Shown one piece after another: positions 4,509-32,000 of a stretch of 32,000 nucleotides of DNA (position 1 is the stretch's first letter; the number at the start of each line of letters is the position of its first letter). Location: positions 3,900,001-3,932,000 of the forward strand of contig NC_010546.1 of assembly GCF_000017845.1 (NCBI RefSeq). The letters are read 5' to 3'. The notes under the pieces were generated by a model, which saw only the letters and a program-made list of their open reading frames with translations, ran no database searches and was not told where the DNA came from. Position numbers and translations under genes: made by a program. Origin of the DNA: Crocosphaera subtropica ATCC 51142. GTDB taxonomy: Bacteria > Cyanobacteriota > Cyanobacteriia > Cyanobacteriales > Microcystaceae.

Positions 4509-4623
4509 ATCATTTTTTAGTTTAATAGGCAGAAGATTTAGAGGAAAAAGATATCATTCCTCTCTTCTGTTTTCTTAAGACAAACTCTCTTTCAACTCCT
4601 TTAATAACAGAGATTTTAAACCG

Positions 4624-6015: not shown

Positions 6016-6120
6016 TTAATGATTTGTTATCATCTAAAGTTTGAGTTTGCTGAAATTTAACATTTGTTTTTGCCACCCAGTTGACGGGCTAACAAGCATT
6101 AAGCCAATGTGTCTTCATGA

Positions 6121-7446: not shown

Positions 7447-7508
7447 TTTTATTGGGGATAGATAATAAACTATCCAACTTGATTGAATCCATTTGTGACC
7501 CCAATTTT

Positions 7509-8228
7509 TTATTCATTGATTAACCATTGTTGTTGTGCCTTTTCAATAATTTCTATGGCTTCAATGACTGTATCAACACAGTGGGGAATGGTGAGATCCC
7601 TAGGGTCAGCTAGTGGTGTTTTTCCTTGAATCATATATTGAGTTGCCCAGGTGACTAAATCCCGCCACATAGGCCCAACCATAATCAAAGGGATGGGGTC
7701 GAGATGACGTACTTGTAATAATTGCCAGACCATCAAGGCTTCTAAGGTTGTCCCAATACCCCCTGGCATGATAATAAAAGCATTAGAAATTAAGACAAAT
7801 TGATGCAGTCGAGAAAAAAAGGTGCGATGACTAAATACTTCTTCGACAAAGGGGTTGGTTTCTTGTTCAACTTCTAGGTCAATACGGATGCCAATGGAAC
7901 GAGTTTGATCTTGGGGATCGGCGGCCACACTACCTTCATTCGCTGCTGTCATTAAGCCAGGTCCGCCTCCTGTGACAATATCACATTGCATTTGGGTTAG
8001 TTGAGTGGCTAACCATTTCACATCTTGATAAATGGCAGAATCTGACTGAATTCTCGCACTGCCAAAAATGGTGACACGGAACCGCTCTCGTTTAGGAGGA
8101 CGCAAACTGGTTAAAGCATTGATGACCTCCCACAACTCTAAAACCGCTTGTTTAACTACTTTTAGGGTTCCTTCTGGGTCGTTAAAACTAACGAGATGAG
8201 GGGATAGAGGATTGGTTTTCCGATTCAT
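7509..8228 (-). CDS. LOG family protein (TIGR00730 / lysine-decarboxylase-like; cytokinin riboside 5'-monophosphate phosphoribohydrolase family)
   Basis: Carries the GGGPGLM and PGGIGTTLE signature motifs of the LOG family. 239 aa. Confidence 0.8.
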   Translation of the reverse strand: MNRKTNPLSPHLVSFNDPEGTLKVVKQAVLELWEVINALTSLRPPKRERFRVTIFGSARIQSDSAIYQDVKWLATQLTQMQCDIVTGGGPGLMTAANEGSVAADPQDQTRSIGIRIDLEVEQETNPFVEEVFSHRTFFSRLHQFVLISNAFIIMPGGIGTTLEALMVWQLLQVRHLDPIPLIMVGPMWRDLVTWATQYMIQGKTPLADPRDLTIPHCVDTVIEAIEIIEKAQQQWLINE

Positions 8229-8351
8229 GAGAATACCCCAGTTACATAAGGAATATTCCAGGAGAGATGCTGCTGTGAATAATTTTTTCAGTTAATCTCA
8301 ATTTATTCCCTACTTTTTCTTATATTTTAGCTCAAAGGGTTAGGTGATGAC

Positions 8352-9986
8352 TTAAACTTTTTCTCTTAAAGCTTTAGTTAGTCGTTTTAAAGCTAAAGAA
8401 CTATCTTGAGGATCTAAATGAACATCTAATATGCAAAAACCCTCTGTATAGGTTTGACTTTTTTCTAACCCTAATTCTAATTCATCTTCTGTTCTAATAT
8501 CAAAGCCTTTACCCGCATTAAAAATAGTAGGAAGCTGACTATAATTCCACAATAAAATGTCATTAAATTTTCCGTCTTGCATGGGTCGTTCAGTTCCATA
8601 GCCTAAATTATTAAGAACAATAATAATCGGATTTAAACCATAACGAACAATAGTAGATAATTCCATGCCTGTCATTTGAAAAGCCCCATCCCCAACCAGA
8701 ACAAGAGGGCGCAGGGTAGAGTTAGCCATTTGTGCGCCAATACTAGCAGGCACAGCAAATCCTAAAGAGGCATAATAAGCAGGGGAAAGAAAACGACTTT
8801 TTTGGTGGACAACTAAATCTGCTCCAGCAAACAAGGCATCACCTACATCTGCAATGACAATCATATCATTACTAATAAAAAGATTGAGGCGTTCAAATAG
8901 TCTTTGAACAGTTATTTTCTCTCCAGGTTTTACTGAGAAGTTTGTGGGAAGTAGGAAACGAGAAGGTAAGTCAACTTGGCGATGCTTGAGGTCAGCGTTT
9001 AATAACCCATTGAGGAAATCAACTAAAGAGATATCTTCATAATTATGAAAATGAATTGAGGTTTTTTCACTGTTAACATCAATGAATGATTGAGGATTTA
9101 ACTTAGCTGTAAATATTCCTAAGTTGACATCAGACAAAAAAGTTCCCAAGGCAATAACACAATCACTTTCTTCTACATATTTTCGGGTAAATTCTTTTCC
9201 CATTGCCCCTTCATAAATTCCTAAATTGTTAGGGTGCATTTCGTTGATGACTGATTTTCCTAGTAAAGTTTCGGCTACAGGAAGATTAGTTTTTTCAACT
9301 AATTTAAGTAGGGACTCTTGTAACTTAAAACGATGAATTTCTACACCAGCTAAAATGACAGGATGTTGAGCTTGATTAATCAGGTTAACGGCTTCTTCTA
9401 ACGCTTCTTGTAGTGCATCAGGATTAGATGAAGAGTTATTACTAGAAGGTTGATTATCAGCACCCAGAGTAACATTAACCATATCTCTGGGGATTTCAAT
9501 ATAAACCGGTCTTTTGTAGCGTAAAGCTGCGGTTAAAACCCGTTCAATTTCGGAATAAGCCGTATCAGGATTATCCAAAACCGTAGAGGCTACGGTTATT
9601 TCTTGAAAGACTTTATATTGAGTATCAAATTCTTTGACTTTATGGTGTAGTAAAGGATTTTTAGTTCGTTCATTAACGCCAGGAGAACCGCTAATGACCA
9701 CCACAGGGGACTTTTCAGCAAAGCATTGGGCTGTAGTATTAGCAATCTTTAAGCCCCCCACACAATAGGTAACACAGACAACTCCTAATCCCCTCAAACG
9801 AGCATAAGCATCCGCAGCAAACCCGGCACCTTGTTCATCACAAGTATTAATAAATTCCAGTTCACTCTTTTCTAAAAGTTTATTAAAACCTAAAACAAAA
9901 TCTCCTGGGACTCCAAAGACATGATTAACCCCTAATTGTAATAGTCTTTCGATTAAATAGTTGCCGATAGATTTATTATTTTCCAT
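8352..9986 (-). CDS. Thiamine-diphosphate-dependent alpha-keto acid decarboxylase (indolepyruvate/phenylpyruvate/pyruvate decarboxylase family)
   Basis: 544 aa. The N-terminus GVNHVFGVPGD is a TPP-enzyme pyrimidine-binding domain. The C-terminal TPP motif is GDGAFQMTGMELSTIVRYGLNPIIIVLNN (GDG-X-NN). Substrate cannot be assigned from sequence alone. Confidence 0.8.
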   Translation of the reverse strand: MENNKSIGNYLIERLLQLGVNHVFGVPGDFVLGFNKLLEKSELEFINTCDEQGAGFAADAYARLRGLGVVCVTYCVGGLKIANTTAQCFAEKSPVVVISGSPGVNERTKNPLLHHKVKEFDTQYKVFQEITVASTVLDNPDTAYSEIERVLTAALRYKRPVYIEIPRDMVNVTLGADNQPSSNNSSSNPDALQEALEEAVNLINQAQHPVILAGVEIHRFKLQESLLKLVEKTNLPVAETLLGKSVINEMHPNNLGIYEGAMGKEFTRKYVEESDCVIALGTFLSDVNLGIFTAKLNPQSFIDVNSEKTSIHFHNYEDISLVDFLNGLLNADLKHRQVDLPSRFLLPTNFSVKPGEKITVQRLFERLNLFISNDMIVIADVGDALFAGADLVVHQKSRFLSPAYYASLGFAVPASIGAQMANSTLRPLVLVGDGAFQMTGMELSTIVRYGLNPIIIVLNNLGYGTERPMQDGKFNDILLWNYSQLPTIFNAGKGFDIRTEDELELGLEKSQTYTEGFCILDVHLDPQDSSLALKRLTKALREKV

Positions 9987-11199: not shown

Positions 11200-13284
11200 A
11201 TGAGCAACACAACTGTAACCAATAACCCTTTACTCATCGGACAAGGATTACCTCCCTTTGATAAAATCACTCATGATCATGTCATTCCGGCAATGACAGA
11301 ATTATTGCAAGAATTAGAAGCTAAATTAAGCGATTTAGAAGCCAAGGTTCAACCCACATGGGAAGGTTTAGTCGAACCTCTAACAGAAATAGAAGAAAAA
11401 TTTAGTTGGAGTTGGGGCATTGTGGGTCATTTAATGGGGGTTAAAAATAGTCCTGAACTTCGTAACGCTTACGAAACAGTACAACCCCAAGTTATCCACT
11501 TCGTTAACAAATTAAGTCAAAGTAAGCCCATTTATGAAGCATTTAAAAGCTTACAAGAAAGTAAGCTATGGAATACTTTAGAAAATGCTCAAAAACGGAT
11601 TGTTGAAACAGCTATAAGAGAAGCAGAATTATCAGGGGTTGCTTTAACAGGAGAAACTCGTGAACAATTCAATCAAATTCAACTGGAATTGGCAGAACTT
11701 TCCACTAAATTTTCTAACCATGTTTTAGATGCAACTAAAGCCTTTAAATTGAAATTAACCACAGAAAAAGAAGTGGAAGGTTTACCCCCTACTTTACTCA
11801 GTTTAGCAGCACAAACGGCACGGGCAGAAGGAGAAGAAAATGCCACCCCAGAAGCCGGACCTTGGGTGATTACATTAGATTATCCCAGTTATATTCCGTT
11901 CATGAAATATAGCACCCAAAGAGACTTAAGGAAGAAGGTTTATAAGGCGTTTATTTCCCGTGCATCCAGTGGAGAATTAGATAATAATCCCTTGATTAAA
12001 CGCATTTTAGAACTGCGGAAACAACAAGCAGAAATTCTCGGTTACAATACCTATGCAGAAGTTAGTTTAGCTCGGAAAATGGCCCCTAGTGTTGAAGCGG
12101 TGGAGGCCTTATTAGAAGAGTTAAGAAAAGTCAGTTATGATGCTGCGGTTAAAGACCTAGAAACCCTAAAAGACTTTGCTAAAAGTGATGACTTAAAACA
12201 GTGGGATGTAAGTTATTGGGCAGAAAAACAACGGGAAACTTTATTCAATTTTACCGCCGAAGAATTACGGCCTTATTTTCCTTTACCGCAAGTATTAGAC
12301 GGGTTATTTACCTTAGCAAAAAGAATCTTTGGGGTAACCATAACTTCCGCCGATGGACAAGCACCGGTTTGGCACGAAGATGTTCGTTATTTTCAGGTTA
12401 ATAATGAAGCAGGAGAAGCGATCGCACACTTCTATTTAGACCCCTATAGTCGCCCCGCAGAGAAGCGTGGAGGGGCCTGGATGAACGATTGTATTGGACG
12501 GGCAAAAATCAAGCTAGAAGAGCAATTTATGACCCGTTTACCTGTCGCTTATTTAATCTGTAATCAAACCCCTCCCGTGGATGAAAAACCCAGTTTAATG
12601 ACCTTTGATGAAGTCACTACTTTATTTCATGAATTTGGCCACGGGTTACAACATATGTTGACAAAAGTTGACTATCCTGGGGCAGCCGGAATTAACAATG
12701 TAGAGTGGGATGCGGTGGAATTACCCAGTCAATTTATGGAAAACTGGTGTTACGATCAAACCACTTTATTTAACATGGCCAAACATTATGAAACGGGAGA
12801 AACCTTACCCGAACATTACTATGATAAATTAGTTTCTGCCCGTAATTATATGAGTGGTTCAGGGATGTTAAGACAGTTACATTTTAGTTTCCTTGACTTA
12901 GAATTACACCATCGTTATCAACCTGATAGTAAAGAAACTCCTGCGGATGTTCGTAACCGCATTGCAGAAAAAACAACGGTCATGAAACCGTTACCAGAAG
13001 ACTCATTTTTATGTTCTTTTGGTCATATTTTCGCTGGCGGTTATGCAGCCGGTTACTATAGTTATAAATGGGCAGAAGTGTTAAGCGCGGATGCGTTTTC
13101 TGCCTTTGAAGAAGCCGGTTTAAATGATGAAAAAGCGGTTTCAGAAACAGGAAAACGGTTCAGGGATACAGTGTTAGCATTAGGGGGAAGTTTAGATCCG
13201 ATGGAAGTGTTTAAAGCATTCCGTGGACGAGAACCACAAACGGAACCTTTATTAAGACATAGTGGTTTATTACAAACTGCATAA
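11200..13284 (+). CDS. prlC: Oligopeptidase A (M3 family zinc metallopeptidase)
   Basis: HEFGH zinc motif and typical M3 C-terminal GGYAAGYYSYKWAEVLSADAF block. The ORF-track start at 11179 is TTG. The ATG at 11200 (MSNTTV) is the more likely start. Confidence 0.9.
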   Translation: MSNTTVTNNPLLIGQGLPPFDKITHDHVIPAMTELLQELEAKLSDLEAKVQPTWEGLVEPLTEIEEKFSWSWGIVGHLMGVKNSPELRNAYETVQPQVIHFVNKLSQSKPIYEAFKSLQESKLWNTLENAQKRIVETAIREAELSGVALTGETREQFNQIQLELAELSTKFSNHVLDATKAFKLKLTTEKEVEGLPPTLLSLAAQTARAEGEENATPEAGPWVITLDYPSYIPFMKYSTQRDLRKKVYKAFISRASSGELDNNPLIKRILELRKQQAEILGYNTYAEVSLARKMAPSVEAVEALLEELRKVSYDAAVKDLETLKDFAKSDDLKQWDVSYWAEKQRETLFNFTAEELRPYFPLPQVLDGLFTLAKRIFGVTITSADGQAPVWHEDVRYFQVNNEAGEAIAHFYLDPYSRPAEKRGGAWMNDCIGRAKIKLEEQFMTRLPVAYLICNQTPPVDEKPSLMTFDEVTTLFHEFGHGLQHMLTKVDYPGAAGINNVEWDAVELPSQFMENWCYDQTTLFNMAKHYETGETLPEHYYDKLVSARNYMSGSGMLRQLHFSFLDLELHHRYQPDSKETPADVRNRIAEKTTVMKPLPEDSFLCSFGHIFAGGYAAGYYSYKWAEVLSADAFSAFEEAGLNDEKAVSETGKRFRDTVLALGGSLDPMEVFKAFRGREPQTEPLLRHSGLLQTA

Positions 13285-14694: not shown

Positions 14695-16054
14695 CAGGGT
14701 AAGCTCATCTAAAATGGTATAAAATGTACTTGACTAAGAAAGTAAAGTCTAGGTGAGGCAAAAAGGGACTTAAAATAAAAAAACAAAGTACAATTAGGAC
14801 TTTCGTAATTATGGAATCAGAACATGGCCAAGGGGTTTGCAGACCAAAAACAATCTAGTAAGAAAAAAAAGGAAAAGGGAAATATAGCATCTATTGATGA
14901 AATCCAAAACAATTTATTAGGCTATGTCAAAGAAATAGAAGATCCTAGAGTACAAAGAAGCAAAAAACACCTCCTTAAAGATGTATTGGCGATCGCTATA
15001 TTGGCAGTCATTGCAGGGTCCCAAGGTTGGGAAGATATGGAGAACTATGGTATCGCAAAACAGGAGTGGTTATCAGAGTTTCTAGAACTCCCTCACGGAA
15101 TCCCGAGTGATGACACATTTAGAAGAGTTTTTGAGAGAATTGATCCAGAATCGCTGCAAAAATGCCTACAAAAATGGGTTCAATCTATAATGAATTCAAT
15201 TCAAGGAGAAATTATCCCCATCGATGGCAAAACATTAAGGGGTTCTTACGATCGCAACGCCGGACAGTGCGCTTTACATACGGTCACAGCGTGGGCATCC
15301 CAGCAGAGTCTGGTGTTAGGACAAGTCAAAGTTGAAAACTACTCCAATGAAATTACGGCCATTCCTGCCTTACTCGAACTATTAGACATTACAGGCTCGA
15401 TCATTACCATTGATGCAATGGGAACTCAAACCAGCATTATCCAACAAATTTGTCGGCAAAAAGCTGACTACATTGTTACTCTCAAAGCTAACCATCCTAC
15501 TTTATTTTCTCAAGTCAAGCAATGGTTTACTGATACCCAAAACAATGGCTGGGATGGCATTGAACATGATTACTACAAAAGTGTAACCAAGGGCCACCAC
15601 CGCACCGAGAAACGATACGTTTGGGCTATACCAGTAGCAGCTATGGGAGAGCTTTACCAGCAACAACAATGGCATGGACTGCAAACTATTGTCGTAGTCG
15701 AACGCATCCGTCACTTGTGGAACAAGACTACCCACGATATTCAGTTTTATCTGACCTCTTTACCTCCCAATGCCCAATTCCTTTGCCATGCGATCCGCAC
15801 CCATTGGAGCATTGAGAATAACCTTCATTGGACACTCGATGTCACTTTTTCTGAAGATCAATGCCGTATTCGGTCAGAATATAGTCCACAGAACTTTGCT
15901 CTTCTAAGACGATTGGCTCTTAATGTTCTCCATCAAGAAAAAACATTTAAACGTAGTCTTCGCCAGAAAATGAAGCAAGCTGCTATGAACAACAACTATA
16001 TGATGACTGTTCTCAATTCCTTCTGTCAAGCGGATTTTAGATGAGCTTACCCTG
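14695..16054 (+). mobile_element. ISAs1-family insertion sequence (1360 bp)
   Basis: Perfect 21-bp terminal inverted repeats: CAGGGTAAGCTCATCTAAAAT at 14695-14715 and its reverse complement at 16034-16054. They enclose a single transposase ORF. No direct target duplication is visible on the flanks. Confidence 0.85.
14824..16044 (+). CDS. ISAs1-family (H-repeat-associated) DDE transposase
   Basis: 406 aa. The N-terminal block I.DPRVQRSKKHLLKDVLAIAILAVIAGSQGWEDME is typical of the DDE_Tnp_1-associated domain. The C-terminal HWSIENNLHWTLDVTFSED block is typical of ISAs1 transposases. Confidence 0.85.
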   Translation: MAKGFADQKQSSKKKKEKGNIASIDEIQNNLLGYVKEIEDPRVQRSKKHLLKDVLAIAILAVIAGSQGWEDMENYGIAKQEWLSEFLELPHGIPSDDTFRRVFERIDPESLQKCLQKWVQSIMNSIQGEIIPIDGKTLRGSYDRNAGQCALHTVTAWASQQSLVLGQVKVENYSNEITAIPALLELLDITGSIITIDAMGTQTSIIQQICRQKADYIVTLKANHPTLFSQVKQWFTDTQNNGWDGIEHDYYKSVTKGHHRTEKRYVWAIPVAAMGELYQQQQWHGLQTIVVVERIRHLWNKTTHDIQFYLTSLPPNAQFLCHAIRTHWSIENNLHWTLDVTFSEDQCRIRSEYSPQNFALLRRLALNVLHQEKTFKRSLRQKMKQAAMNNNYMMTVLNSFCQADFR

Positions 16055-21228: not shown

Positions 21229-21302
21229 GGACGTATAGCTCAGTTGGTTAGAGTACATCGTTGACATCGATGGGGTCACTGGTTCGAGTCCAGTTACGTC
21301 CA
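21229..21302 (+). tRNA. tRNA-Val (anticodon GAC)
   Basis: Cloverleaf read by eye. Acceptor stem GGACGTA (21229-21235) pairs with TACGTCC (21295-21301), with discriminator A at 21302. D-loop is AGCTCAGTTGGTTAGAG. Anticodon stem CATCG/CGATG has loop TTGACAT (anticodon GAC at 21263-21265). T-arm is GGTTCGAGTCC. CCA is not encoded. Confidence 0.95.
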
Positions 21303-21346
21303 TACTAGTCATAACAAGCATTGCAGCCTATTTTGTGACTTTATGT

Positions 21347-21394
21347 TGTACATTAACAGATTATTTGTCATCGGTAACATATTATGTGTCGTGT
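21347..21394. repeat. Transposon terminus: TGTACA end plus two tandem TnsB-type binding repeats
   Basis: The sequence starts TGTACATTAACAGATTATTTGTCATCGG TAACATATTATGTGTCGTGTG. Two 20-bp direct repeats (21354-21373 and 21375-21394) share 16/20 positions. As far as I recall, Tn7-like/V-K ends start with TGT(ACA) and carry arrays of such repeats. Confidence 0.65.
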
Positions 21395-21433
21395 GCTTAT
21401 TACTGAAGCTAATCCTAGATCATGGTAAAAAAT

Positions 21434-21610
21434 CTTTCAATCCATCTCATTAACCAAAATAGATTGTGACAGTACAATGACAGGGTTTTGATTCCAGATT
21501 CTTACTTTCAATCCATCTCATTAACCAAAATAGATTGTGACGATGGAAAATATACCTCAAACAAGCATTACCACTTTCAATCCATCTCATTAACCAAAAT
21601 AGATTGTGAC
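21434..21610 (-). CRISPR. CRISPR array, 3 repeats / 2 spacers, type V-K repeat
   Basis: Three identical 37-nt repeats at 21434-21470, 21505-21541 and 21574-21610. The minus-strand repeat is GTCACAATCTATTTTGGTTAATGAGATGGATTGAAAG, ending in the V-K-typical TTGAAAG. Spacers are 34 nt (21471-21504) and 32 nt (21542-21573). Confidence 0.9.
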
Positions 21611-21924
21611 GACAGAAGCCCAAAAACCTTATGTATTAGGTCTTTTGCTGACTATTTGCGCTGGATGAAACTCTAAAGTTCATTTCAGCTACAGTCTTTA
21701 AACAAAATAAAGACTGAGAAGTGCTACAACCTATATCTAACAACGGGTTCAAGCTTTGCGCTAGACAACTAGAGAAAAAGAGTTGCTTTTACACGCCTCA
21801 AACTAAGATTAAGCAAGGATTTCATCTTGGTCTAGAATGACTCAGTAAAGATTACAGCAACACACCTGCGCCCTTGCAGAATCAAACATTTTGAGAGCGA
21901 ACTCTAAAATGAGTTAATCTTATA

Positions 21925-21950
21925 GGACGTAACTGGACTCGCTTTCAATC
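21925..21950 (-). ncRNA. Delocalized homing crRNA: truncated repeat (GATTGAAAG) + 17-nt spacer matching tRNA-Val
   Basis: The minus strand reads GATTGAAAG|CGAGTCCAGTTACGTCC. The 17-nt spacer (21941-21925) is identical to tRNA-Val nt 21285-21301, which is directly preceded by GGTT (21281-21284). Confidence 0.85.
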
Positions 21951-22010
21951 TACTTAATATCTATAAACCTAACTATGCCTTTAACCATGCTTTATCCCGT
22001 CATCAGTAAG

Positions 22011-22295
22011 AAAAAATAAGTGGATTCCTCCTTGCTCGGAGGTGATTCAGTAGCCATCGCTGTGGTAAACCCACGCCACTTATTGCTGGGAGCGCACCTA
22101 CCCTATAAAATGAAATTATCAGCTAATCTCAAGCTACAGGTTAATCATCTCTACAACCTAAATTGTAGAAATCAGCTTCAGGGTGGACAGCTACTAGGGC
22201 CAGAAAGCACAACTATCTACCAATAGTTAACCTAACCCATTTCCGTAATCCAGAGGTTCAATTAAGAACATAATTTACGGTGCGCGACTTCATTT
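22011..22295 (-). ncRNA. Cas12k tracrRNA
   Basis: Lies between the cas12k stop and the crRNAs on the same strand. It contains anti-repeat segments ATTAACC (complement of 22139-22145) and AATCCA (complement of 22022-22027), which pair with repeat GGTTAAT and TGGATT. It ends in CTTATTTTTT. Blocks TAGGTGCGCTCCCAGCAATAAG and GGCTACTGAATCACC..CAAGG.GGAA match my recollection of the ShCAST tracrRNA scaffold. The 5' boundary is approximate. Confidence 0.75.
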
Positions 22296-22349
22296 ATACT
22301 CTTCAGTATAAAAATACCATATTAGATTGTCAAGGTTCAGATGAAAATT

Positions 22350-24188
22350 TTAAGCAGATAAACGCGACTGGTAAGCTTTGAAAGCTAATTCCGCAGCTTT
22401 TTGTAGCGTAGTTCCCTGTAGTGGTTGTTGGCTTTCTTCAACAACTATTCCTAATTTAGAAGCCTGTGCTTGAATGTTGTCAATTAATCTGCCGTAACTC
22501 TACTGGTGGACTTGTATACGATATTTCTTGGCATATTCTGCTTGTGCTTCAATACAATTGGGGATTTTAGCTTCAGCTTTAGTTTGGATTTCACTTTGAA
22601 TCGCTTCTCTTATATCCTTTAGTTTAGGAACAACAATACTTCCTGCTTGATATTCTTGAGCTATTGATATGATTGCTTTAGCCAATAAACGGTCAATATG
22701 TTGACCTAATTCAGAATCACCAAACTGGTTAAAAGCCTCTTTTTGCTGTGCCACATTTCTTTGATGAGACTGAAGCTGTTTTTGTCTCCGTTGACGGTTA
22801 AGTAAGGGATAATTTTTTCCAAGCAGTTGTTTAATGTTTCGGTAAGTTAACACTTTTCTGGTCATTCCATCAATAACGGCAATAGTAGCAGGTTTTTTGA
22901 GTTCCATCGAAACACCAACTAGAATATTAGATTTTCCTTGATATAAAGGTTGACTGGGGCGAGGAAAGGGATTTTCAAGTCTATCTAAGGTTGATTGTTT
23001 TCGCTTAATAAATGCTTGTTGATTTTTGGTTAAATCCCCCTTTTCGTTCATAGAAGTAAGAACTTTGGCAATTTCTTCTGCCTTTTCCTGTTTGACTTCT
23101 TCTGTCCTTTCTTGTGTCCATAAACGAGTATCTAGGGTACATTGTAGGGTTAAGCGATGAACATTCCAAGGTTGACTTTTTCCAGTCTCTTCTTGCCAGA
23201 GAATGCGTCCAGAACGTAGAGTAAATAAGGCACTAGAATGTTGATTTTTACTAGATTTTTTTATTTGTTGATCTTCGTAAAAACGTTGAAACCATTTAAG
23301 TTGTCGGTTGCCACAATAAATTTCAAATTTTAAGTCACTTATTCCATTAAACTGAACACAAAGACGACCTTTTTCATTTTTTGACCAAGTTAAATCTTCG
23401 TTAGTTTCGTAGTTGATAGGAAAAGGAATTGATGAGGATTTTGTTAGTAAATTATCTTGCCATGATCTCGCTTCTTCAATATTTTCAGGATCAGTACAAC
23501 AAGCAATCTTTAATGTTTCTAACCAATTCTCATTAGTTACATCTCGACCTTGAGGTAAACGACTATTAATTTGTTCTTGTAGTCGTTTAAGCATGATTTC
23601 TACTTTACGGCGACGTTTAGCAAATTTCTTAGTATCTTCTGGTTTTTGAGGAAGTTGACAGCGATTTTTAAGTAAGTATTTTAAGGCTGTTCGAGTTAGA
23701 ATATCTTGTTCATTTCTATAGTCTTGAAAGAGAGTATTAAATAAACGTTCTGTTCCTTCATAAGATTGAAGGATTTCAGTAGCTTTCTGGCGAATTGTTT
23801 CTAAATCTGTTTGACCGTCTTTGATTAATTGATGATCACTTTTTAAGACTTCTAACCAGCGTCTTTTTCGATCAAGTTTTCGCTGTAGTCGTTGTTGAAG
23901 TTTAAGCCAAGATTTGAAGATATATTTTACTAAATTAATGCCAGAAGTATAAAACCGTGCAGGTTGTCCTAAAAAACGGGGATCTTTCTTTAATTCATTA
24001 CCTAATTGTTCGATAACCTTTACTTTTAGTCTTCCTCACTGTTTCCACTTTTCAAAGTCGGGGTGTTGTGCCACTTTTTGCAGTAATTCGTTGATAAATG
24101 GCGTGTTTAAGTCTGTCATTAGTCGCCAAAGGGTGTGACGGATGGGTTCTTTAGCAACGAGACGACATTGAATGGTGATTTGACTCAT
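22350..24188 (-). pseudogene. cas12k: cas12k (612 codons) interrupted by two in-frame stop codons
   Basis: ATG at 24188 (MSQITIQCRLVAKEPIRHTLWRLMTDLNTPFINELLQKVAQHPDFEKWKQ) is followed by TGA at 24038-24036. The same frame continues without shift through the track ORF 23594-22500, which ends in TAG at 22502-22500 (...YRIQVHQ*). It then runs on in frame (SYGRLIDNIQAQASKLGIVVEE...SRLSA) to TAA at 22352-22350. Strongly collinear with the ShCas12k sequence as I recall it. The RuvC-I position reads GVSMELKKPATIAVID, with no GxDxG aspartate. Confidence 0.9.
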
Positions 24189-24208
24189 CTCATTTAAACA
24201 AAAGCGTC

Positions 24209-24230
24209 TAATACAAACATAATTGTATTA
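24209..24230. promoter_or_regulatory. Palindrome in cas12k/cvkR divergent intergenic region (candidate CvkR operator)
   Basis: TAATACAA-acataa-TTGTATTA: perfect 8-bp arms with a 6-nt spacer. It is centred in the 68-bp gap between the cas12k ATG (24188) and the MerR-gene ATG (24257). Confidence 0.4.
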
Positions 24231-24256
24231 TAGCAAGTCTTTGTAAAATAGAGGTC

Positions 24257-24685
24257 ATGGGAGAAATTTTTTTTACCTCTAAGGATGCTGCTAAAATTAC
24301 GGGGTGTACTCTGCGCCAGTTACAGTATTGGCGGGAAAAAGGGGTTATTGTCCCGATGGTGAGTGCAACGGGAACGGGGAGAAGCGTTTATTATTCTCGT
24401 TCTGAGTTGGTGGAGTTGGCAGTAATGGTAAATTTGCTGTCAGTGGGGTTAACTTTTGAGTCTGCTTCTGGAGTGTTGCAGCAGTTAAGGGAAATTGAGC
24501 CGAATTTTGCTGAGGAGAAAAGTCAACGGCGTTTAATGTTGGTTTTTGACACTTCTGAGGGAATGCTGAGGTTAAAGGATTTTGAGCGAGAGAGTGCGAT
24601 CGCTTTTCTAGATCAAGGTTTCCCTGTTATTCCTGTGTGGGTAGATGAAATTTATCAGAAATTAGATGCTCAGTTGCTAAATTAA
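24257..24685 (+). CDS. cvkR: MerR-type HTH transcriptional regulator (CvkR-like, Cas V-K repressor)
   Basis: 142 aa. The N-terminal FTSKDAAKITGCTLRQLQYWREKGVIVP is a MerR-family HTH. It is divergently transcribed from cas12k, the position reported for CvkR in V-K CASTs. Confidence 0.75.
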   Translation: MGEIFFTSKDAAKITGCTLRQLQYWREKGVIVPMVSATGTGRSVYYSRSELVELAVMVNLLSVGLTFESASGVLQQLREIEPNFAEEKSQRRLMLVFDTSEGMLRLKDFERESAIAFLDQGFPVIPVWVDEIYQKLDAQLLN

Positions 24686-24773
24686 ACCTAAAAGGATTAT
24701 GATAAACAATACATAAATACTAACTAAATTAAAGACAAGTTTTTTACATAAGGATAAAATTATCAATTTAACT

Positions 24774-25841
24774 ATGCAACTTATTCAAACTAGACCGAAA
24801 AAGTCAAGTAGGACGACAACAAAAGCATGGCTCAAAACTCTGACCTTAGCTTGTTCCTATGCTGGATTATCGGGGAAAAAGTCGCCTTGGGATTTAGCTG
24901 ACTTAACTTTACAAGTACAAACAAGATGGCAAAATGATTCTAGATATAATTTAAAAGAACTATCTAATGCTTGTAATATTTCTGAATCACGATTACGTTT
25001 GTTAGCAAGAACAGCAAAATTTTATCCTCCTCAAAAACGCTTTCAACAGCTTAGTATTACTCATCATATTGAGGCAATGCGAAAGGCTCCCGATAAGGCT
25101 TATTATTGGCTCAATCAAGCATTAGAAAAAAAATGGAGTGGTAGAGAGATACGTTTAGCTATTTCGGGAGATGGCGATCCTAAAAAATTTTCATGGTTAC
25201 GATGTGGAACATTTTGGTATTTTTCTCATTGCGATCCTAGATTTGGAATTAAATATCCTGGCCGTATTCCAGGGCAAATACCAGCTAATTTAATACACTA
25301 TTTTACTGAACCTAATGATTTAGTTGTAGATTTAATGGCAGGAGGTGGCTCAACTTTAGATGCGGCTAAGTTTTTGGATAGAAAGTGTTTAGGTTATGAC
25401 TTAGTTTCTGTTCGTCCTGATATTTTAATTAATGATGCTCTTGTCGGTATTCCAAAAGAAGCTTACAATGCAAAATTAATTTTTTTAGATCCTCCTTATG
25501 GTGCGATCGCTAAAAATTTATATAGCAAACATCCTCATTGTTTATCGCAAATGAATGAAAAGGAATTTGTTAAAGCTTTAGTTACTATTAGTGAATATTG
25601 TGGTCAAGCTTTGGTATCTGATGGATACTTAGCAATTTTATTACAAAATGTCTATGACTGGGAAAGCGATACAGTATTTAAAATCATCCAAAGTTTTTTT
25701 GATAATAATTGGAAGCTTGTTCGTAGAATTCAAGCTCCTATTTCTAATCAACAAATTTCATCTAGTGTTATGAAATGGGCTAGAGAAAATCGCAAAATGA
25801 TCAATACAGATCGTGATTTGTTAATTTTTCAAATGATTTAA
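24774..25841 (+). CDS. DNA methyltransferase (N6-adenine/N4-cytosine type) with N-terminal HTH/ParB-like extension
   Basis: SAM motif I is VVDLMAGGGSTLDAA and catalytic motif IV is IFLDPPYG. The N-terminal about 130 aa (LSITHHIEAMRKAP...WSGREIRLAI) resembles DNA-binding extensions of phage/plasmid methylases. No adjacent restriction endonuclease. Confidence 0.8.
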   Translation: MQLIQTRPKKSSRTTTKAWLKTLTLACSYAGLSGKKSPWDLADLTLQVQTRWQNDSRYNLKELSNACNISESRLRLLARTAKFYPPQKRFQQLSITHHIEAMRKAPDKAYYWLNQALEKKWSGREIRLAISGDGDPKKFSWLRCGTFWYFSHCDPRFGIKYPGRIPGQIPANLIHYFTEPNDLVVDLMAGGGSTLDAAKFLDRKCLGYDLVSVRPDILINDALVGIPKEAYNAKLIFLDPPYGAIAKNLYSKHPHCLSQMNEKEFVKALVTISEYCGQALVSDGYLAILLQNVYDWESDTVFKIIQSFFDNNWKLVRRIQAPISNQQISSSVMKWARENRKMINTDRDLLIFQMI

Positions 25842-25857
25842 GCAGGACAAGTATTTT

Positions 25858-27432
25858 ATGAATAACCAAAAATTTAATGGTGAATCACTGTATGTGTTAC
25901 CTGATTCTGAGAAAGGAGATAAAAGCCTTAAGATTTGTATCGATTTCGATGCAACTTCTGAACAACCAAAATTTAAACGCAACGATTATGTTTTAATTTC
26001 TCAATCAGAACAACATCAGTGGGTCGGACAGATTGCAGATGTAGAAAGAATTATTTGTCCAATGGGACAATATTCAGATAACACCATCGAGTATCTTAGA
26101 AGACAAGTTTTAGCTCCCGATACAGTTCGTCCGCTTCGGGTTGTTAGATTGTTTGAAGTTCGGATTATTGGTCAATATATTGATGATGAATTGGATGTAC
26201 CTCTAAACAACATTTTGCCAGGAGCTTTAGTCAGTAAATTAGATGAAAAAAGAATTCGTAATTTAATTAATATTCCTCAAATCAAAACTTATTCAGATAA
26301 GTCTCAAAATGTTGTTGGTATTATTCAAAATGCTGAAAACATACCATTAACAATAGATCGTTTAATCATTAGAGATCATATTGGTGTAGGGGGTGCATCA
26401 GGACGAGGAAAGTCAAATTTGAACGAGAATCTAGTGGCGATCGCACAACAAGAAGGATGCTGTATTATTCAGCATGATGCTAAACCTGATTTTAGATACA
26501 TTGAAAAAGCTAATACAGACTCTCATCCTGCTATTCAAGCAAACTGGGAAAAATTTAAAGATTATGGTCTAAAACCTAGAGGAGCAAAAGATGTATTTAG
26601 AATTGCGATCGCTAATCATTTGCCACCTGATGACGTTAAAGTGGACATGATATTAGGGTTTAATGCTTCTGACTTAAATCCTGAATTACTGGCTCAACTA
26701 TTATCTCCTGGTACAGATCAAGCTTCTATTAATGCTCAAGATAATCTAGTCAAAGCAATTTATGGATTAAGGAGAAGAGATTACACACTAAATGACATCG
26801 TGGCAGAAGTTCAAAGGCGAAGGGCTGACGATGAAACTGCTCAAAATAATTATCAAGCTGCTGATCTGATACATCCAATGACTGTTGACTCTATTTTAAG
26901 AAAAATCAATAGCAATCGTCAAAGATTAGATTGGTTAGATACGGTAGGGAACTCAGTGAATAGAGGAGACATTAATAAAAGTAAGCACTTGGCCAGTAAC
27001 AAAAATCCTCAAAAAGTACAAAGATTTACTCCAGAACACATTTTTAAATCAGGAAGGATTATTATGATTGATTATCATAACATTTCTAAAGACGATGAAA
27101 ACTCTTATGCCATTATTTTGGAATATTTGCTGCGACAAGCTCATGATTATGTTTTGAATTCCGATCTAAATATTGTCGAAATGATTGATGAAGCTCATCG
27201 AGTATTTAATAATACATCTCGTCGAGCAAGTGCCTTAGTAAAATCTTTTACAAAATTTGCCCGTGAAGGTCGTGTAAAAGGTCACTGGATGATTGTTAGC
27301 ACTCAGTTATTTAGTGATATCGATCCAGAGGTTAGAGAAAACTTAAATACCAGATTTGTGTTACAACAAAATACAAGAGACGCAGCCAAGATTGCTACAG
27401 AAAATATGGGAAGTGATTTTATTGATACAGTA
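25858..27432 (+). pseudogene. HerA/FtsK-like ATPase, 5' part (525 codons) interrupted by IS
   Basis: Walker A is GVGGASGRGKSN and Walker B is IVEMIDEAHRVF. The N-terminal barrel-like segment reads DYVLISQSEQHQWVGQIADVE. The reading frame leaves the gene at the IS boundary (27433). The track ORF end DISKNP* is IS-derived. Confidence 0.65.
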
Positions 27433-28629
27433 GACATCTCCAAGAATCCATAACCCAGTTACAGCAATGAAAACAGGCAGATTAAACTTGAAGTCAAAAT
27501 TAGCCTTCAGAACGAATTAATAAGGGGTTGAAGGAATTAACTCTAATTTGGACATAAAACTATGGCTCATTATAACGTCAATTACCTCTCCAGATTGGGA
27601 GGATTCTATTATTTTCAAAATCAAGGAACTAATTCTCAACCGAACTAATCCACAAACGGTTAACAAAACCGATTTATATCGACTCTTATGTAAGCGAAAT
27701 CTTTCTTGAACTACTTTAAATACTTTGACAACTCGAATTAAATGCTCAACAAAAATCCGATTAGATGATAAAGCTTTATTTTCTTTTATTTGAGCTTCAG
27801 TTAATTCTCTTTTCTTAGTTTTTTTATGCGGAGTGATAATTTGAGTCTCTCCAATGTAGGCTTTATCAGCACTAAAAGTTTGGTTTATCTTGAATTTATT
27901 TAAAGTTTGCCGACAGATGTTAATGTCACTTGTCGGCCCAGGTTTTCCAATTACTACATCAATAATATCTTCAGCTTTTGGCAAGACAACGAATTGACTT
28001 TTTAAAGTATGTCTTTTCTGCTTACCCTGTCTCTTGGTGCGCGTTCCCTAGGCGATTACGAATCGCCGGGGTCGCACCGCAATAATATTTTTTTTGTTCT
28101 TGATAATCTGAAGGTCTTTCAATAGCCTGTTCTGCGCTGTCTACAATCAATTCATAATCAGTTAACATTTCAAGAACTATTTCTTTTTCTTCTTGAAACT
28201 TTTTTATTTGTTCTAATAAACTTGGTGGTAACTCTCCTTCAAAAAGTGTTTGCCAATAAGTAAAAATATTATGAGCCGTTGACTCACTTACTTGAAAAAG
28301 TAGTCCTAAGAGTTGAAAACTTATATTATGTCTTAAATAAACTAACGTTAGAACAATTTGTTCTTCTTCTGCTAATAAAGATGGACTTCCCGCACCAGGT
28401 TGATTAATTCTAATTTTTGTTTTTTCGTTCTCTTCTTTTTTTTTCTGATGAAGAAGCTTCCCTAGAGCAATCAATTGTTCCAATTGATTGTCATCAATTC
28501 CTAATAATCTTTTGGTTTGTTTAGGATATTTTTTTAGATAGCTCCAAGTGTAAGTTTCCATTCTTTTTTGAACTAATTATTCATTTTATTATACTATATT
28601 TCTTGATTTTATTAAATTATGGAGATGTC
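27433..28629 (-). mobile_element. IS5-family (DDE_Tnp_4 / Harbinger-like) insertion sequence, 1197 bp, TA target duplication
   Basis: Terminal inverted repeat GACATCTCCA at 27433-27442 and its complement at 28620-28629. It is flanked by TA (27431-27432 and 28630-28631). Removing the IS plus one TA restores an in-frame HerA-like ORF. Confidence 0.8.
27517..28561 (-). pseudogene. IS5-family transposase split into two ORFs by a 50-nt insertion
   Basis: The N-terminal ORF (28561-28022) carries an HTH_Tnp_4-like segment (LTLVYLRHNISFQLLGLLFQVSESTAHNIF). The C-terminal part (frame open from about 28024: GKQKRHTLKSQFVVLPKAEDIIDVVIGKPGPTSDI...ADKAYIG...NRIFVEHLIRVVKVFK) is the DDE domain. The usually contiguous YxGKxKRHT motif is separated by GC-rich sequence at 28026-28075. 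Confidence 0.7.
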
Positions 28630-28631
28630 TA

Positions 28632-28865
28632 GTGATCAGTCTTGGAAAGGGAAAATGTCTAGTTAAAACCAATGAATCTCAAGCTGTACTTCAAGTAGCA
28701 ATTGCACCTAGTCCCTTTGAATTAATGAGGGATGATAATCGTAATAAAAAAGGAGTTTATCAAGCTCCTCAACATAGGACCCAAAATAAAAATAACTCTA
28801 AAACAAAAAAAGCTGATAGTGATTTGGAAGATAAGGAAGATAAGTATGATTATAGTGCTTTTTAA
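28632..28865 (+). pseudogene. HerA/FtsK-like ATPase, 3' part (77 codons)
   Basis: Continues the 25858 frame once the IS is removed (..DFIDTV|VISLGKGKCLVKTNESQAVLQVAIAPSPFEL...). Not an independent gene. Confidence 0.6.
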
Positions 28866-28908
28866 AGAAATTTCAATTTCAAAATATTTCAAAAATAGGA
28901 GTTAAAAC

Positions 28909-29988
28909 ATGGATTTTTCTGAAATGCTCAAAGATAGCAAACAAGTCACCTATGATGACTTTGTGATAGATAGTGGAGGTATTGCTGATGATATTATTGA
29001 AATGTTTACAAATCCTTTAGCCATAGAAGTGCAAGAAATCTATAAAAAAGACATTTTAGAATTAAAAAATATAAAAACTGATAAAGGAACAGTGTTTGGA
29101 CTTAGAAAACTGAATTTTGGCGATATATCCCAAGCACCTGAAGTTTTATCTGGTCAAGTTGCAGCAGTTGATGGAACTTTTGCTTTACCTCGTCAAGATT
29201 ACTCAACAGGATCAGCCGTTTGTGTCGCAGTTGGTAGTGCGACAATGACTAGAACACTACAGGATAGTTTACATTATTGGTCTAGTACCAAAGCACTGAA
29301 AAATACTCAAGATATTGATGATTTTTTAGACCTTAGACAAGAACATCTTTATAAGCCTAATAATAGTGCATTTATGCGTTACTTTGAAGCTGCTCATGCT
29401 TTAAAAATCGATGAAAAATTTATATTTTTTGATGGACTTTTATGTGATGAATGGTTAGCTAATACAAAAGAAGGGGCTGCATTATATCGAGAAATGCTAG
29501 AACATCCAAATAAAAAGTTTATAGGTGTAATTAAGAGTTGTAAAAAGAATTTAATGTTTTCACAGTATGCCCGTGCTTGTCCATCAGGTTCTATATTATT
29601 AATAGAAACTTTATATGAACATATAAACAGAAGAGAATCAGAAACTAGATTTTCTCTTCACTCTAATAAACAAGAAGTACGATCCTTTTGGAATGAGTTA
29701 TCTCCTCGCATTATTAGGGGAGTTTTTAAACCTTATAAACGAGCATTTGGTTTTGAAGTTTTAGAAGATCATTTAGATGACATGATCCGTCTTTTGGCTG
29801 CAGACGCACACATGAGTCAGGAAGGACATGAAATTCCTTATTTATTAAATTTAGTTGATGGTGAAATTAGGAGAATGTTTAAACGCCATAAACTCTTGAA
29901 TGATATTGCACTAAAAATGAATCAAACTTCTGACTCTATTTATCAAGAAGAATGGGACGAACACGCATTTCGTCCACAACAAGCATAA
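28909..29988 (+). CDS. Hypothetical protein, possibly NurA-like nuclease
   Basis: 359 aa, starting 43 nt after the HerA-like gene on the same strand. The segment GQVAAVDGTFALP resembles the N-terminal catalytic (a)iDGS motif of NurA domains. HerA-NurA gene pairing is well known. The assignment is tentative. Confidence 0.4.
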   Translation: MDFSEMLKDSKQVTYDDFVIDSGGIADDIIEMFTNPLAIEVQEIYKKDILELKNIKTDKGTVFGLRKLNFGDISQAPEVLSGQVAAVDGTFALPRQDYSTGSAVCVAVGSATMTRTLQDSLHYWSSTKALKNTQDIDDFLDLRQEHLYKPNNSAFMRYFEAAHALKIDEKFIFFDGLLCDEWLANTKEGAALYREMLEHPNKKFIGVIKSCKKNLMFSQYARACPSGSILLIETLYEHINRRESETRFSLHSNKQEVRSFWNELSPRIIRGVFKPYKRAFGFEVLEDHLDDMIRLLAADAHMSQEGHEIPYLLNLVDGEIRRMFKRHKLLNDIALKMNQTSDSIYQEEWDEHAFRPQQA

Positions 29989-30000
29989 AATAAAATTAAA

Positions 30001-30420
30001 TCATTTTAAATGCTTAATAGGTTGATGAGTTAGTTTTTTCAATTCCTCTGCTACTTCAACACGATGACAGCGATGATAATCCATTTCTGCACACAACAGT
30101 AAAATAGTTTTAGATTTTGCTTTTTGGGCAATATCTTGTAAAACTTGATCAGCTTTTTCAGGATCAGGAGAAACCCAATGACTTGTACCTGAAACATTTC
30201 CTAATGTAGTTTCTGATAAATATTCTATTCCTTGTTCATGACAAAATTTTTCAATTTGATCACCGTACCATTTACGACTCCAAGCACGAGGTTTTTCTCG
30301 AACATCAATCAGAAAATCAATTTTAAACTCTTTTATATAGTTTAACAAAGTATCATAATTAGAACGATTGCCATAACCAAACGTCAAGATAAAAGATTGA
30401 TGAATAGATGTATTGTTCAT
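30001..30420 (-). CDS. DUF488 family protein
   Basis: 139 aa. FGYGNRS..LL....I..LIDVREKPRAWSRK...L...C...GI.Y....LGN follows the DUF488 pattern as I recall it. It ends with CAEMDYHRCHR (Cys/His cluster). Confidence 0.65.
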   Translation of the reverse strand: MNNTSIHQSFILTFGYGNRSNYDTLLNYIKEFKIDFLIDVREKPRAWSRKWYGDQIEKFCHEQGIEYLSETTLGNVSGTSHWVSPDPEKADQVLQDIAQKAKSKTILLLCAEMDYHRCHRVEVAEELKKLTHQPIKHLK

Positions 30421-30424
30421 AATT

Positions 30425-31219
30425 TTAAAATAACTCCATTTGTTTTATTTTTACTAGAGGAGGATAAAATAAACCGATAATCATAAAAGAATTTTTATGA
30501 TTCTTAAGATTTCCAACAATAAAATATAAATCTTTGTTTTGTAAAAAATTATCTTCTAGTTTTTGTCTAACTTTTTCTAAAGCATCTTGTTCAGCTTCTA
30601 ATCCTGAGAATTTAGAGTGATTACGACACTTACGATAAAGTTCCATAATTTCCCAATCACTAATCGAATATTTATGAGGTATATTATCTTGGTCAGTAAA
30701 TTGATAAACAAATTGATAAGGTATTTTTTCCAAGTCTATATTAGGTTCAAATAAATCTAACTGATTTAAAATATTCTGTTTCTTTTGATCCCATTCTCTG
30801 GTTGTTTGTTTGAAAAAATATTTTTCAACTGATTTAGGTTTAATAATTCCTAATGATTTTCCCTCTTCTTGAATTTCTTTAATCGATCTAAATTGTAATG
30901 GTAAAACGAATGATTTTCGCTCCTCCCAATTGTTACGAGTATCTATTTTTCTAATAATTTGCAAAGAATCATCATCGATCCGAAAACTTTCTGCACGATA
31001 ATCTTTATCATTTTTTACAATTTTTGCACTAATAATTGCCCATCTCGGATAACGTTTATCAAAATCTAAATAACGATATCTAATCGGATAAATTCTAACC
31101 CACTGCAGGGGATGTTCTTCGTCATCTAGCAATATCCCTGCTGTACAAACTGTTTCTTTATATTTAGTGCTAATTGACGGATAAGTTTTAGTAGCAATTA
31201 AAATCTTTCTTGTTTCCAT
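30425..31219 (-). CDS. Hypothetical protein (264 aa), no recognisable domain
   Basis: Long ORF starting 21 nt downstream of the tniQ stop and ending 4 nt before the DUF488 gene, all on the same strand. Coding-like composition. Confidence 0.6.
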   Translation of the reverse strand: METRKILIATKTYPSISTKYKETVCTAGILLDDEEHPLQWVRIYPIRYRYLDFDKRYPRWAIISAKIVKNDKDYRAESFRIDDDSLQIIRKIDTRNNWEERKSFVLPLQFRSIKEIQEEGKSLGIIKPKSVEKYFFKQTTREWDQKKQNILNQLDLFEPNIDLEKIPYQFVYQFTDQDNIPHKYSISDWEIMELYRKCRNHSKFSGLEAEQDALEKVRQKLEDNFLQNKDLYFIVGNLKNHKNSFMIIGLFYPPLVKIKQMELF

Positions 31220-31240
31220 AAAGTTTACATAAATATTGGC

Positions 31241-31750
31241 TTAATATTTAATTATTTGTTGCTTTTCCATCATCTCCCCAAACGATAAAAAACACCGATG
31301 ACACCAACCCTCAACCCAAAGTGCAGGAAACTGAAACCTTGCCCCACAATTAGGGCATTCCGACAACAACGTTAACCCATGCTCTGAACAAAACTGAGTC
31401 GTCTTCAACTGCCATTCAATCTTATGACAAGCTTCTTCCTCATAACAAGCCCCACATAAGCGAATCGGTTGATGCTTCATTCCCACACCTTTTGGCGGAA
31501 ACATACTCCATAACCTTTCCACTTCTACCCGTACCACATCAGATAAAGCCGTTAACTCCTCCTCAGTGGGTGCAGGAATAAAACGAAACTTCTCCCATCT
31601 GGCGATCGCACCCCCTAACCCCGTTATTTTACCCATCATCGTCACTGTTAACTCATTTTCTCGCCGAAACCGTCCTAAAAAATGACTGATACTTTCCCCT
31701 GCTAACGGTTGCACCAAAAACCACCAAGGTTGAATCTCTCGACTTTCCAT
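31241..31750 (-). CDS. tniQ: TniQ (small V-K CAST type)
   Basis: 169 aa. GESISHFLGRFRRENELT, the AIARWEKFRF block and IRLCGACYEEEACHKIEWQ...CPNCGARFQFPALW..GWCHRC are collinear with ShCAST TniQ as I recall it. The ATG overlaps the tnsC stop (TAATG at 31752-31748). Confidence 0.9.
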   Translation of the reverse strand: MESREIQPWWFLVQPLAGESISHFLGRFRRENELTVTMMGKITGLGGAIARWEKFRFIPAPTEEELTALSDVVRVEVERLWSMFPPKGVGMKHQPIRLCGACYEEEACHKIEWQLKTTQFCSEHGLTLLSECPNCGARFQFPALWVEGWCHRCFLSFGEMMEKQQIIKY

Positions 31751-32000
31751 TATCGATACTCCTCTGTCACTTCCTTCAAAGTTTCTAAATCAATCTTCTG
31801 TAACCCCTTTTTTAACGCTCTAATAGCAGATTCCCGTAGAATCATATCTAATAAGCCAATATAACCCCCCGTTGCTTGTCCGAGAATCTTTAACATCCGT
31901 TTACTACTTAAATTAGACGCTACAGGCAACTTCAACACCTGACGTTCCCAAATATCCACCGTTTGACTAAACTCATCTCCTGCTAACTTACCAAAGCGAT
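31750..32000 (-). CDS. tnsC: TnsC (AAA+ regulator of V-K CAST), 3' end only
   Basis: The frame is open to the window edge (..FGKLAGDEFSQTVDIWERQVLKLPVASNLSSKRMLKILGQATGGYIGLLDMILRESAIRALKKGLQKIDLETLKEVTEEYR). This matches the C-terminus of ShCAST TnsC as I recall it. The ATG at 31959 in the ORF track is internal. Confidence 0.9.
   Translation of the reverse strand, partial: RFGKLAGDEFSQTVDIWERQVLKLPVASNLSSKRMLKILGQATGGYIGLLDMILRESAIRALKKGLQKIDLETLKEVTEEYR

Follow-up and report, generated by a model that had tools for sequence, protein, structure and literature searches.

A type V-K CRISPR-associated transposon beside tRNA-Val in Crocosphaera subtropica ATCC 51142, and the signs of its decay

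Does a CRISPR (short palindromic repeats, clustered and regularly interspaced) effector gene next to an intact transfer RNA (tRNA) gene belong to a transposon that chooses its own target, and can that transposon still move? Both parts of the question are raised by a 32,000-nucleotide (nt) stretch of Crocosphaera subtropica ATCC 51142, here called the window (NCBI RefSeq assembly GCF_000017845.1, contig NC_010546.1, positions 3,900,001 to 3,932,000 of the forward strand). A type V-K CRISPR-associated transposon (CAST) of 13.2 kb has its left 10.65 kb at window positions 21347-32000. We consider it highly likely that this Tn7-like element was homed to tRNA-Val by its own anchor guide, and that the present copy is decaying and has very probably lost RNA-guided transposition of its own. 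The signs of decay are two nonsense codons in cas12k, the loss of repeats from the left end, a cargo gene split by an insertion sequence (IS), and the lack of a target-site duplication.

Ends, transposition genes and homing guide

The window stops within the element, and the remainder was found on a Logan contig (L001) that was retrieved by exact look-up of the TniQ protein. L001 is 100% identical to the window over 28650-32000 (3351 nt) and then runs past the window end through the remainder of tnsC, tnsB and a right end (RE) with an inverted TGTACA terminus about 300 nt upstream of tnsB. The full element measures 13,244 bp, from window position 21347 to a virtual coordinate of about 34590. 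A second, independent Logan contig (L005) matches the window at 100% identity over 21628-27460 (5833 nt). Beginning at the tRNA, the order is left end (LE), array, tracrRNA, cas12k, divergent cvkR, cargo, tniQ, tnsC, tnsB and RE. A sequence-only reading of the window had proposed a type V-K CAST beside tRNA-Val, and all of the features that it named are present where it placed them. It had also predicted tnsB and an inverted terminus past 32000, and held that their lack would count against a mobile element. That ground for rejecting it falls away because both lie just beyond the window, on the overlapping contig. The parts that define the element and its target are the following, where PAM stands for protospacer-adjacent motif and crRNA for CRISPR RNA.

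21229-21302, plus strand: tRNA-Val(GAC) gene, the attachment (homing) site (ARAGORN; Rfam RF00005, 68.7 bits)
21281-21284 and 21285-21301, plus strand: PAM GGTT and 17-nt anchor protospacer CGAGTCCAGTTACGTCC, within the tRNA T-arm and acceptor 3' end
21342-21346: TATGT, the would-be target-site duplication on the LE side, abutting the end
21347-21395, plus strand: LE (in the ShCAST/Ziemann naming), a TGTACA terminus with two tandem TnsB-type repeats, TAACAGATTATTTGTC and TAACATATTATGTGTC
21925-21954, minus strand: anchor (homing, delocalized) crRNA unit, consisting of a truncated repeat AGTAGATTGAAAG (21942-21954) and a 17-nt spacer (21925-21941)
31241-31750, minus strand: tniQ, 169 aa (Pfam TniQ; ShTniQ E 7e-65, residues 2-166 against 3-167)
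31750-32000, minus strand: 3' part of tnsC (last 251 nt); 278 aa in full on L001 (ShTnsC E 1.8e-117)
Beyond the window, on L001: tnsB, 563 aa (ShTnsB E 2.2e-251)

The homing site and its guide are preserved without a mismatch. The tRNA-Val(GAC) gene is intact and oriented toward the element, and the TGTACA terminus (21347-21352) starts exactly 44 nt past its end. A repeat finder returns the anchor spacer as an exact inverted match (17/17) to tRNA positions 21285-21301. This 17-nt sequence occurs only twice in the window even when 2 mismatches are allowed, and 0 of 100 shuffles gave any occurrence. Immediately before the spacer stands ...AGATTGAAAG, the 3' end of the CRISPR repeat, of which the last ~13 nt are kept. 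Counted from the first base past the PAM up to the last one ahead of TGTACA, the distance is 62 nt, which fits the 60-66 bp at which ShCAST inserts in E. coli. The earlier claim that the CRISPR module selects the target is much strengthened by this exact match with the right PAM at the right distance.

Each of these properties has a precedent among V-K CASTs, in which the published native PAM-to-LE distances range from 46 to 82 nt (PMC9938897). Their truncated repeat-spacer units combine ~13 nt of repeat with a 17-nt spacer and a GTN PAM (bioRxiv 10.1101/2021.02.06.429022; PMC9938897). The tRNA in such elements points toward LE, the CRISPR-side end (PMC9938897). We dropped the idea that the tRNA adjoins the wrong end here, since a tRNA beside the CRISPR-side LE is the norm.

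The transposition proteins are close homologs of those of ShCAST. TnsB, TnsC and TniQ are each colinear with their ShCAST counterparts, and the tnsB-tnsC-tniQ operon adjoins the far end. TnsB conserves the residues aligned to D205, D287 and E321 of ShTnsB, which we take to be the DDE triad. None of cas1, cas2, cas4 or tnsA was found among the open reading frames (ORFs) of the element, a search that included L001 for tnsA. By sequence, no damage is apparent in tnsB, tnsC, tniQ, cvkR or the RNA genes.

The two ends differ in how well their repeats have been kept. LE contains two tandem 21-bp units with cores at 21354-21369 and 21375-21390, and a degenerate motif built from them matches just those 2 sites across 32 kb. 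The right end on L001 has 4 matches to the same motif and 1 variant. In an alignment, the LE of the ATCC 51142 element is 40 nt shorter than in three relatives. The number of TnsB-type repeats there is 2, against 4 in C. chwakensis and 3 each in Crocosphaera MO_202 and PCC 8801, so that the 40-nt gap looks like a loss of two repeat units.

Guide RNAs, Cas12k and its regulator

Between LE and the cargo lie the components that would supply and control the RNA-guided step, including the trans-activating CRISPR RNA (tracrRNA).

21434-21610, minus strand: CRISPR array with 3 identical 37-nt repeats GTCACAATCTATTTTGGTTAATGAGATGGATTGAAAG and 2 spacers
22010-22298, minus strand: tracrRNA, ~290 nt (ends approximate), with CUUUC, a 3' anti-repeat AAUCCAC and a U-run at its end near 22010
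22305-22333, minus strand: promoter-like site of the tracrRNA, TTGACA-17-TATACT (consensus match only)
22350-24188, minus strand: cas12k pseudogene, 612 codons, colinear with intact 612-aa orthologues
24217-24226, minus strand: operator-like 10-mer ACAATTATGT in the cas12k-cvkR intergenic region, unique in the window
24257-24685, plus strand: cvkR, a MerR-type repressor gene divergent from cas12k (Pfam MerR_1, E 9.5e-17)

The array repeats occupy 21434-21470, 21505-21541 and 21574-21610 and are separated by spacers of 34 and 32 nt. Neither spacer has a match among PLSDB plasmids, and the first 24 nt of each spacer have none in IMG/VR. Two plus-strand ORFs (21488-21676 and 22020-22226) overlap the array and the tracrRNA and were taken as artefacts.

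A tracrRNA downstream of cas12k on the same strand is supported by comparison. The region aligns block by block with 15 other cas12k loci, and RNAalifold, run on a 14-sequence subset, predicts 51 pairs, 19 of which keep pairing through two-sided changes. The anti-repeat AAUCCAC, the 7 nt that follow the last hairpin, can pair at 6/7 positions with AUGGAUU, the 7 nt before GAAAG in the repeat; one pair is U-A here where Nostoc has C-G. Across 57 loci, the complementarity between tracrRNA and cognate repeat exceeds that of permuted combinations (4 of 1000 permutations reached the observed value). TTGACA-17-TATACT, just past the cas12k stop, is the best consensus match in 21300-24400 (11/12 positions). 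In Rfam no family covers the tracrRNA, and the sole match is the tRNA. Compared with those of Nostocales, tracrRNAs from the Crocosphaera and PCC 8801 elements have an additional stretch of ~50 nt in mid-molecule (window 22100-22190, minus strand).

A gene for a Cas12k-family effector is present, and it is broken. The product matches NCBIfam NF038191 (V_Cas12k) from end to end (model positions 1-629 of 629) with 905.8 bits against a cut-off of 150, and PDB chains of ShCas12k match its central 364 aa (E 1.8e-157); Pfam has 0 matches for it. From that central match and the full-length family membership we infer a natural RuvC inactivation. The closest full-length Cas12k proteins have 612 aa and 78-85% identity. 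Two in-frame stops interrupt the gene, a TGA at codon 51 (24036-24038) and a TAG at codon 563 (22500-22502), and there is no frameshift. The sequence-only reading was right to name a Cas12k effector, with the qualification that its gene is not intact. Codon 51 varies among six full-length homologues (V, R, A, K or Q), but at codon 563 they have an invariant Trp, so the latter change was TGG to TAG. Both stops are reproduced in L005, and the 100% identity of this independent contig means that they are not an artefact of one assembly. The ratio of nonsynonymous to synonymous substitution (dN/dS) against the intact C. chwakensis sister is 0.17 for cas12k, compared with 0.09 for tnsB, 0.05 for tnsC and 0.18 for cvkR. 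A value of 0.17 implies that cas12k was inactivated recently relative to the divergence of the two elements.

The regulator of the system is catalogued as CvkR ACB53130.1 (Supplementary Data 1, Ziemann 2023). The 10-mer ACAATTATGT lies 29-38 nt upstream of cas12k and also 25-34 nt upstream of tnsB (L001:3209-3218, unique in L001). It recurs at both corresponding promoter regions of the sister element (L006:1904-1913 and 9963-9972). ACAATTATGT, a candidate variant CvkR operator, resembles the published CvkR motif ACATnATGT but has one extra base between the half-sites.

We infer the route to the tRNA from the anatomy of the element and from published work on ShCAST and AnCAST; the parts, the match, the PAM, the spacing, the orientation and the damage are direct observations. 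Nuclease-dead Cas12k would load the tracrRNA together with the anchor crRNA, and this complex would bind tRNA-Val at its 3' end, on the 17 nt that match and adjoin the GGTT PAM. TniQ and a TnsC filament would then position and recruit TnsB. TnsB would insert the element 62 bp downstream of the PAM with LE nearest the tRNA, leaving the tRNA undamaged. Because there is no TnsA, integration would follow a replicative pathway. The guides of the 3-repeat array may serve a second pathway into mobile DNA, and CvkR is expected to repress cas12k and tnsB. RNA-guided transposition by the element's own Cas12k has very probably been lost in this copy, in which RNA-guided routes should no longer be available because cas12k is broken. 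A Cas12k-independent TnsB-TnsC-TniQ (BCQ) pathway has been described for ShCAST (PMC10370016). At most, such a pathway would remain here, if the shortened LE is usable, or else a Cas12k supplied in trans.

Alternatives for the origin and state of the copy

Several observations weigh against a decaying, self-homed CAST. The first is the lack of a 5-bp target-site duplication. The sequence-only reading had predicted a direct copy of TATGT at the far end, and this expectation failed: the far flank (L001:2929-2933) reads GCTGA on L001, or TCAGC in window orientation. Cupin/globin, methyltransferase and AraC genes make up that flank. Since there is no duplication, one simple insertion does not account for the far junction of today. 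Exact-pattern scans for an empty site in metagenome contigs, one with the tRNA-side flank and one with the far flank, gave 0 matches. The duplication may be missing because intramolecular replicative transposition rearranged the tnsB side, because elements stacked at one tRNA recombined, or because the insertion is old and its flank has since turned over.

A second such observation is the position of the anchor, which stands upstream of the array, unlike the published scheme and unlike most of the loci scanned. The survey covered 82 loci (the window, L008 and 80 genome loci encoding Cas12k), and an anchor with an NGTN PAM was detected in 54 of them. It lies downstream of the array in 45 of these 54, within the array in 1 and upstream in 3, and 5 have no array. 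The three with an upstream anchor are Crocosphaera elements (the window, L009 and L010), and none of the other scanned loci has this arrangement. The order tracrRNA, anchor, leader, array is confined to these loci in the survey and is thus a clade-specific variant. Its placement directly after the tracrRNA and ahead of the array may favor expression of the anchor over that of the array guides.

The other points on this side concern the RNA duplex and the operator. The plain duplex energy of the tracrRNA with the repeat or the anchor is no better than with shuffled repeats; with sequences this short the measure carries no information. A search for the exact published CvkR motif, AnnACATnATGTnnT, gave no match.

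The missing duplication bears most directly on the age of the insertion, for which the sister element in C. chwakensis CCY0110 (L006/L009) is the closest comparison. It occupies the same tRNA-Val(GAC), and its transposition and CRISPR modules are 88% identical to ours in DNA. C. chwakensis, whose 17-nt anchor is identical, and Crocosphaera MO_202 both have the same anchor unit in the same place, between tracrRNA and array, in elements at the same tRNA-Val. The CCY0110 copy differs in having an intact 612-aa cas12k, 4 TnsB-type repeats at LE, a 133-aa TniQ and a cargo that consists of an MmeI-type restriction-modification enzyme. Its ends as defined here reproduce the published coordinates exactly (11,330 bp), which validates the end definition. 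It too is without a target-site duplication (L006:1654-1658, 12989-12993), and its tnsB-side end abuts a 5'-truncated NACHT gene. Together, this junction and the absent duplications suggest a rearrangement on the tnsB side. Element coordinates 3322-9923 (window ~24670-31270) are unrelated to the cargo of L006. Sisters that share 88% identical modules and differ wholly in cargo point to replacement of the cargo between conserved end modules.

An ancient, vertically inherited insertion is the strongest of the alternatives, possible although we think it unlikely. After a single homing in an ancestor of Crocosphaera, the cargo would have been exchanged and the tnsB side rearranged, and the copy would be a fixed remnant rather than the result of recent homing in this strain. 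Sisters at the same tRNA-Val with the same anchor, conserved core modules around unrelated cargo, and the lack of duplications in both ATCC 51142 and CCY0110, where the far end meets a truncated gene, speak for such a history. The insertion points, however, differ by 1 nt (44 and 45 nt past the tRNA), the flank between tRNA and element cannot be aligned by eye, and the far flanks bear no relation to each other. An anchor guide should, moreover, bring independent insertions to one site again and again.

Both sister elements keep the tRNA-side junction, and their far-end junctions could also be read more specifically, as natural scars left when a CAST that lacks TnsA underwent intramolecular replicative transposition (adjacent deletion or inversion) in the native host. 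On this reading the element in ATCC 51142 would be naturally cas12k-null, and the RNA-independent TnsB-TnsC-TniQ pathway would be all that it has left. We regard this proposal as doubtful, more so than the ancient insertion.

It is quite improbable that the element is a fully functional CAST whose cas12k stops are sequencing or strain artefacts, or are read through, so that RNA-guided transposition still works. The other parts (tnsB, tnsC, tniQ, cvkR, tracrRNA, anchor and array) are in order, and a cas12k gene free of frameshifts with a dN/dS well below one would suit this view. Against it stand both stops in the independent Logan assembly, a GenBank record with two separate proteins, and a published catalogue that flags a "reduced cas12k". 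The stop at codon 563 replaces an invariant Trp, and no recoding signal is evident. Conserved parts of the protein are lost with the last 49 residues, or with the first 198 should translation begin anew at Met199.

It is barely credible that the block is a CRISPR-like locus of another origin, domesticated and immobile, which only happens to stand near the tRNA. A broken cas12k, a shortened LE and the missing duplication would suit this view, but both inverted termini carry TnsB-type repeats, the tnsB-tnsC-tniQ operon is complete, a guide inside the element matches the neighboring tRNA with the canonical spacing, and the differing cargo of the sisters shows turnover as a mobile unit.

Cargo and comparison with known systems

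The CAST carries a cargo of its own, which is interrupted by a second mobile element.

24774-25841, plus strand: N6/N4 DNA methyltransferase (Pfam N6_N4_Mtase, E 2.7e-12; PADLOC type II methyltransferase models)
25858-28865, plus strand: HerA-like ATPase gene, split by the IS (Pfam DUF87/HerA; PADLOC HerA, E 1.3e-11)
27433-28629, minus strand: IS5-family insertion sequence, 1197 bp (Pfam HTH_Tnp_4 and DDE_Tnp_4; NCBIfam IS5, weak)
28909-29988, plus strand: 359-aa protein, weakly NurA-like (Pfam NurA, E 0.009, below the curated cut-off; 0 PADLOC matches)
30001-31219, minus strand: DUF488 protein (30001-30420) and 264-aa protein (30425-31219) (Pfam DUF488; PADLOC)

The HerA-like gene survives as two parts (25858-27432 and 28632-28865) that, when restored, encode 525 + 78 aa. 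The IS between them has inverted ends GACATCTCC..., a TA duplication and a transposase in two ORFs, and the two independent assemblies (L001 and L005) both break at its edges. The DUF488 and 264-aa proteins match the PADLOC candidate defence system PDC-M19A/B with E 6.7e-13 and 1.8e-74. The sequence-only reading had called the cargo and the state of decay specific to this copy; the cargo does differ from that of the CCY0110 sister, and the cas12k stops, the short LE and the IS agree with it. The cargo block 24774-29988 also has weak PADLOC matches to the MADS components mad2 and mad8.

Two observations concern the flanking chromosome. An ISAs1-family transposase gene at 14824-16044 (NCBIfam E 3e-127) is unrelated to the IS inside the CAST. 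At window positions 61-6015, genes for a methyltransferase and a flavin monooxygenase come after a polyketide synthase module (KS-AT-ACP-TE, 1168 aa), all belonging to a small locus for a secondary metabolite or lipid.

The importance of type V-K CASTs lies in their use as tools for programmable DNA insertion, to which this copy adds little. Its modest value is as a natural example of CAST decay in which the transposase operon has been left intact, and in drawing attention to the placement of the homing guide peculiar to Crocosphaera and to a candidate variant CvkR operator. Those who work with the model strain ATCC 51142 need not expect competition between an introduced type V-K system and the resident CAST by way of the latter's own Cas12k. 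The resident TnsB, TnsC, TniQ and guide RNAs could still interfere with such a system.

The element itself has been recorded before. The 364-aa central ORF of cas12k is 100% identical to cce_3780 of Crocosphaera subtropica (Cyanothece) ATCC 51142, and Supplementary Data 1 of Ziemann et al. 2023 (PMC9938897) has a row for an element of this strain, flagged under exceptions as "reduced cas12k". Its Cas12k is entered as "ACB53128.1 and ACB53129.1, 2 proteins", its CvkR as ACB53130.1, and its ends as LE 3921344 and RE 3934593, or 13,250 bp. Because of this entry, the class, the mechanism and this copy count as already known. The earlier description of an additional natural example rather than a new class was thus apt, given parts like those of ShCAST and AcCAST and an existing catalogue entry. 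The small new points are a homing guide that stands upstream of the array, as it does solely in the Crocosphaera clade, and the variant operator-like motif.

ShCAST (Scytonema hofmanni, Tn7747) and AcCAST share with this element the protein set, the TGTACA ends, and the lack of TnsA and of adaptation genes. They also share 37-nt repeats ending in GAAAG, a homologous tracrRNA and a GTN-type PAM. The Crocosphaera element differs from them in its cas12k pseudogene, its CvkR regulator, its cargo, the two TnsB-type repeats at LE, and the extra stretch of ~50 nt in the tracrRNA that it has in common with the PCC 8801 element.

AnCAST (Anabaena sp. PCC 7120) and the general V-K architecture (PMC9938897) have an identical gene order, a 17-nt anchor, a truncated repeat and a GTN PAM. 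In those systems the anchor lies between the array and LE, whereas here it lies between the tracrRNA and the array, and AnnACATnATGTnnT is replaced here by ACAATTATGT at the cas12k and tnsB promoters. The delocalized crRNAs (Hsieh & Peters 2021; Saito et al. 2021) likewise consist of ~13 nt of the repeat 3' end and a 17-nt spacer with a perfect tRNA match and a GTN PAM. They are reported to lie typically 3' of the array or at its end, and in this and two other Crocosphaera genomes the corresponding unit is 5' of the array.

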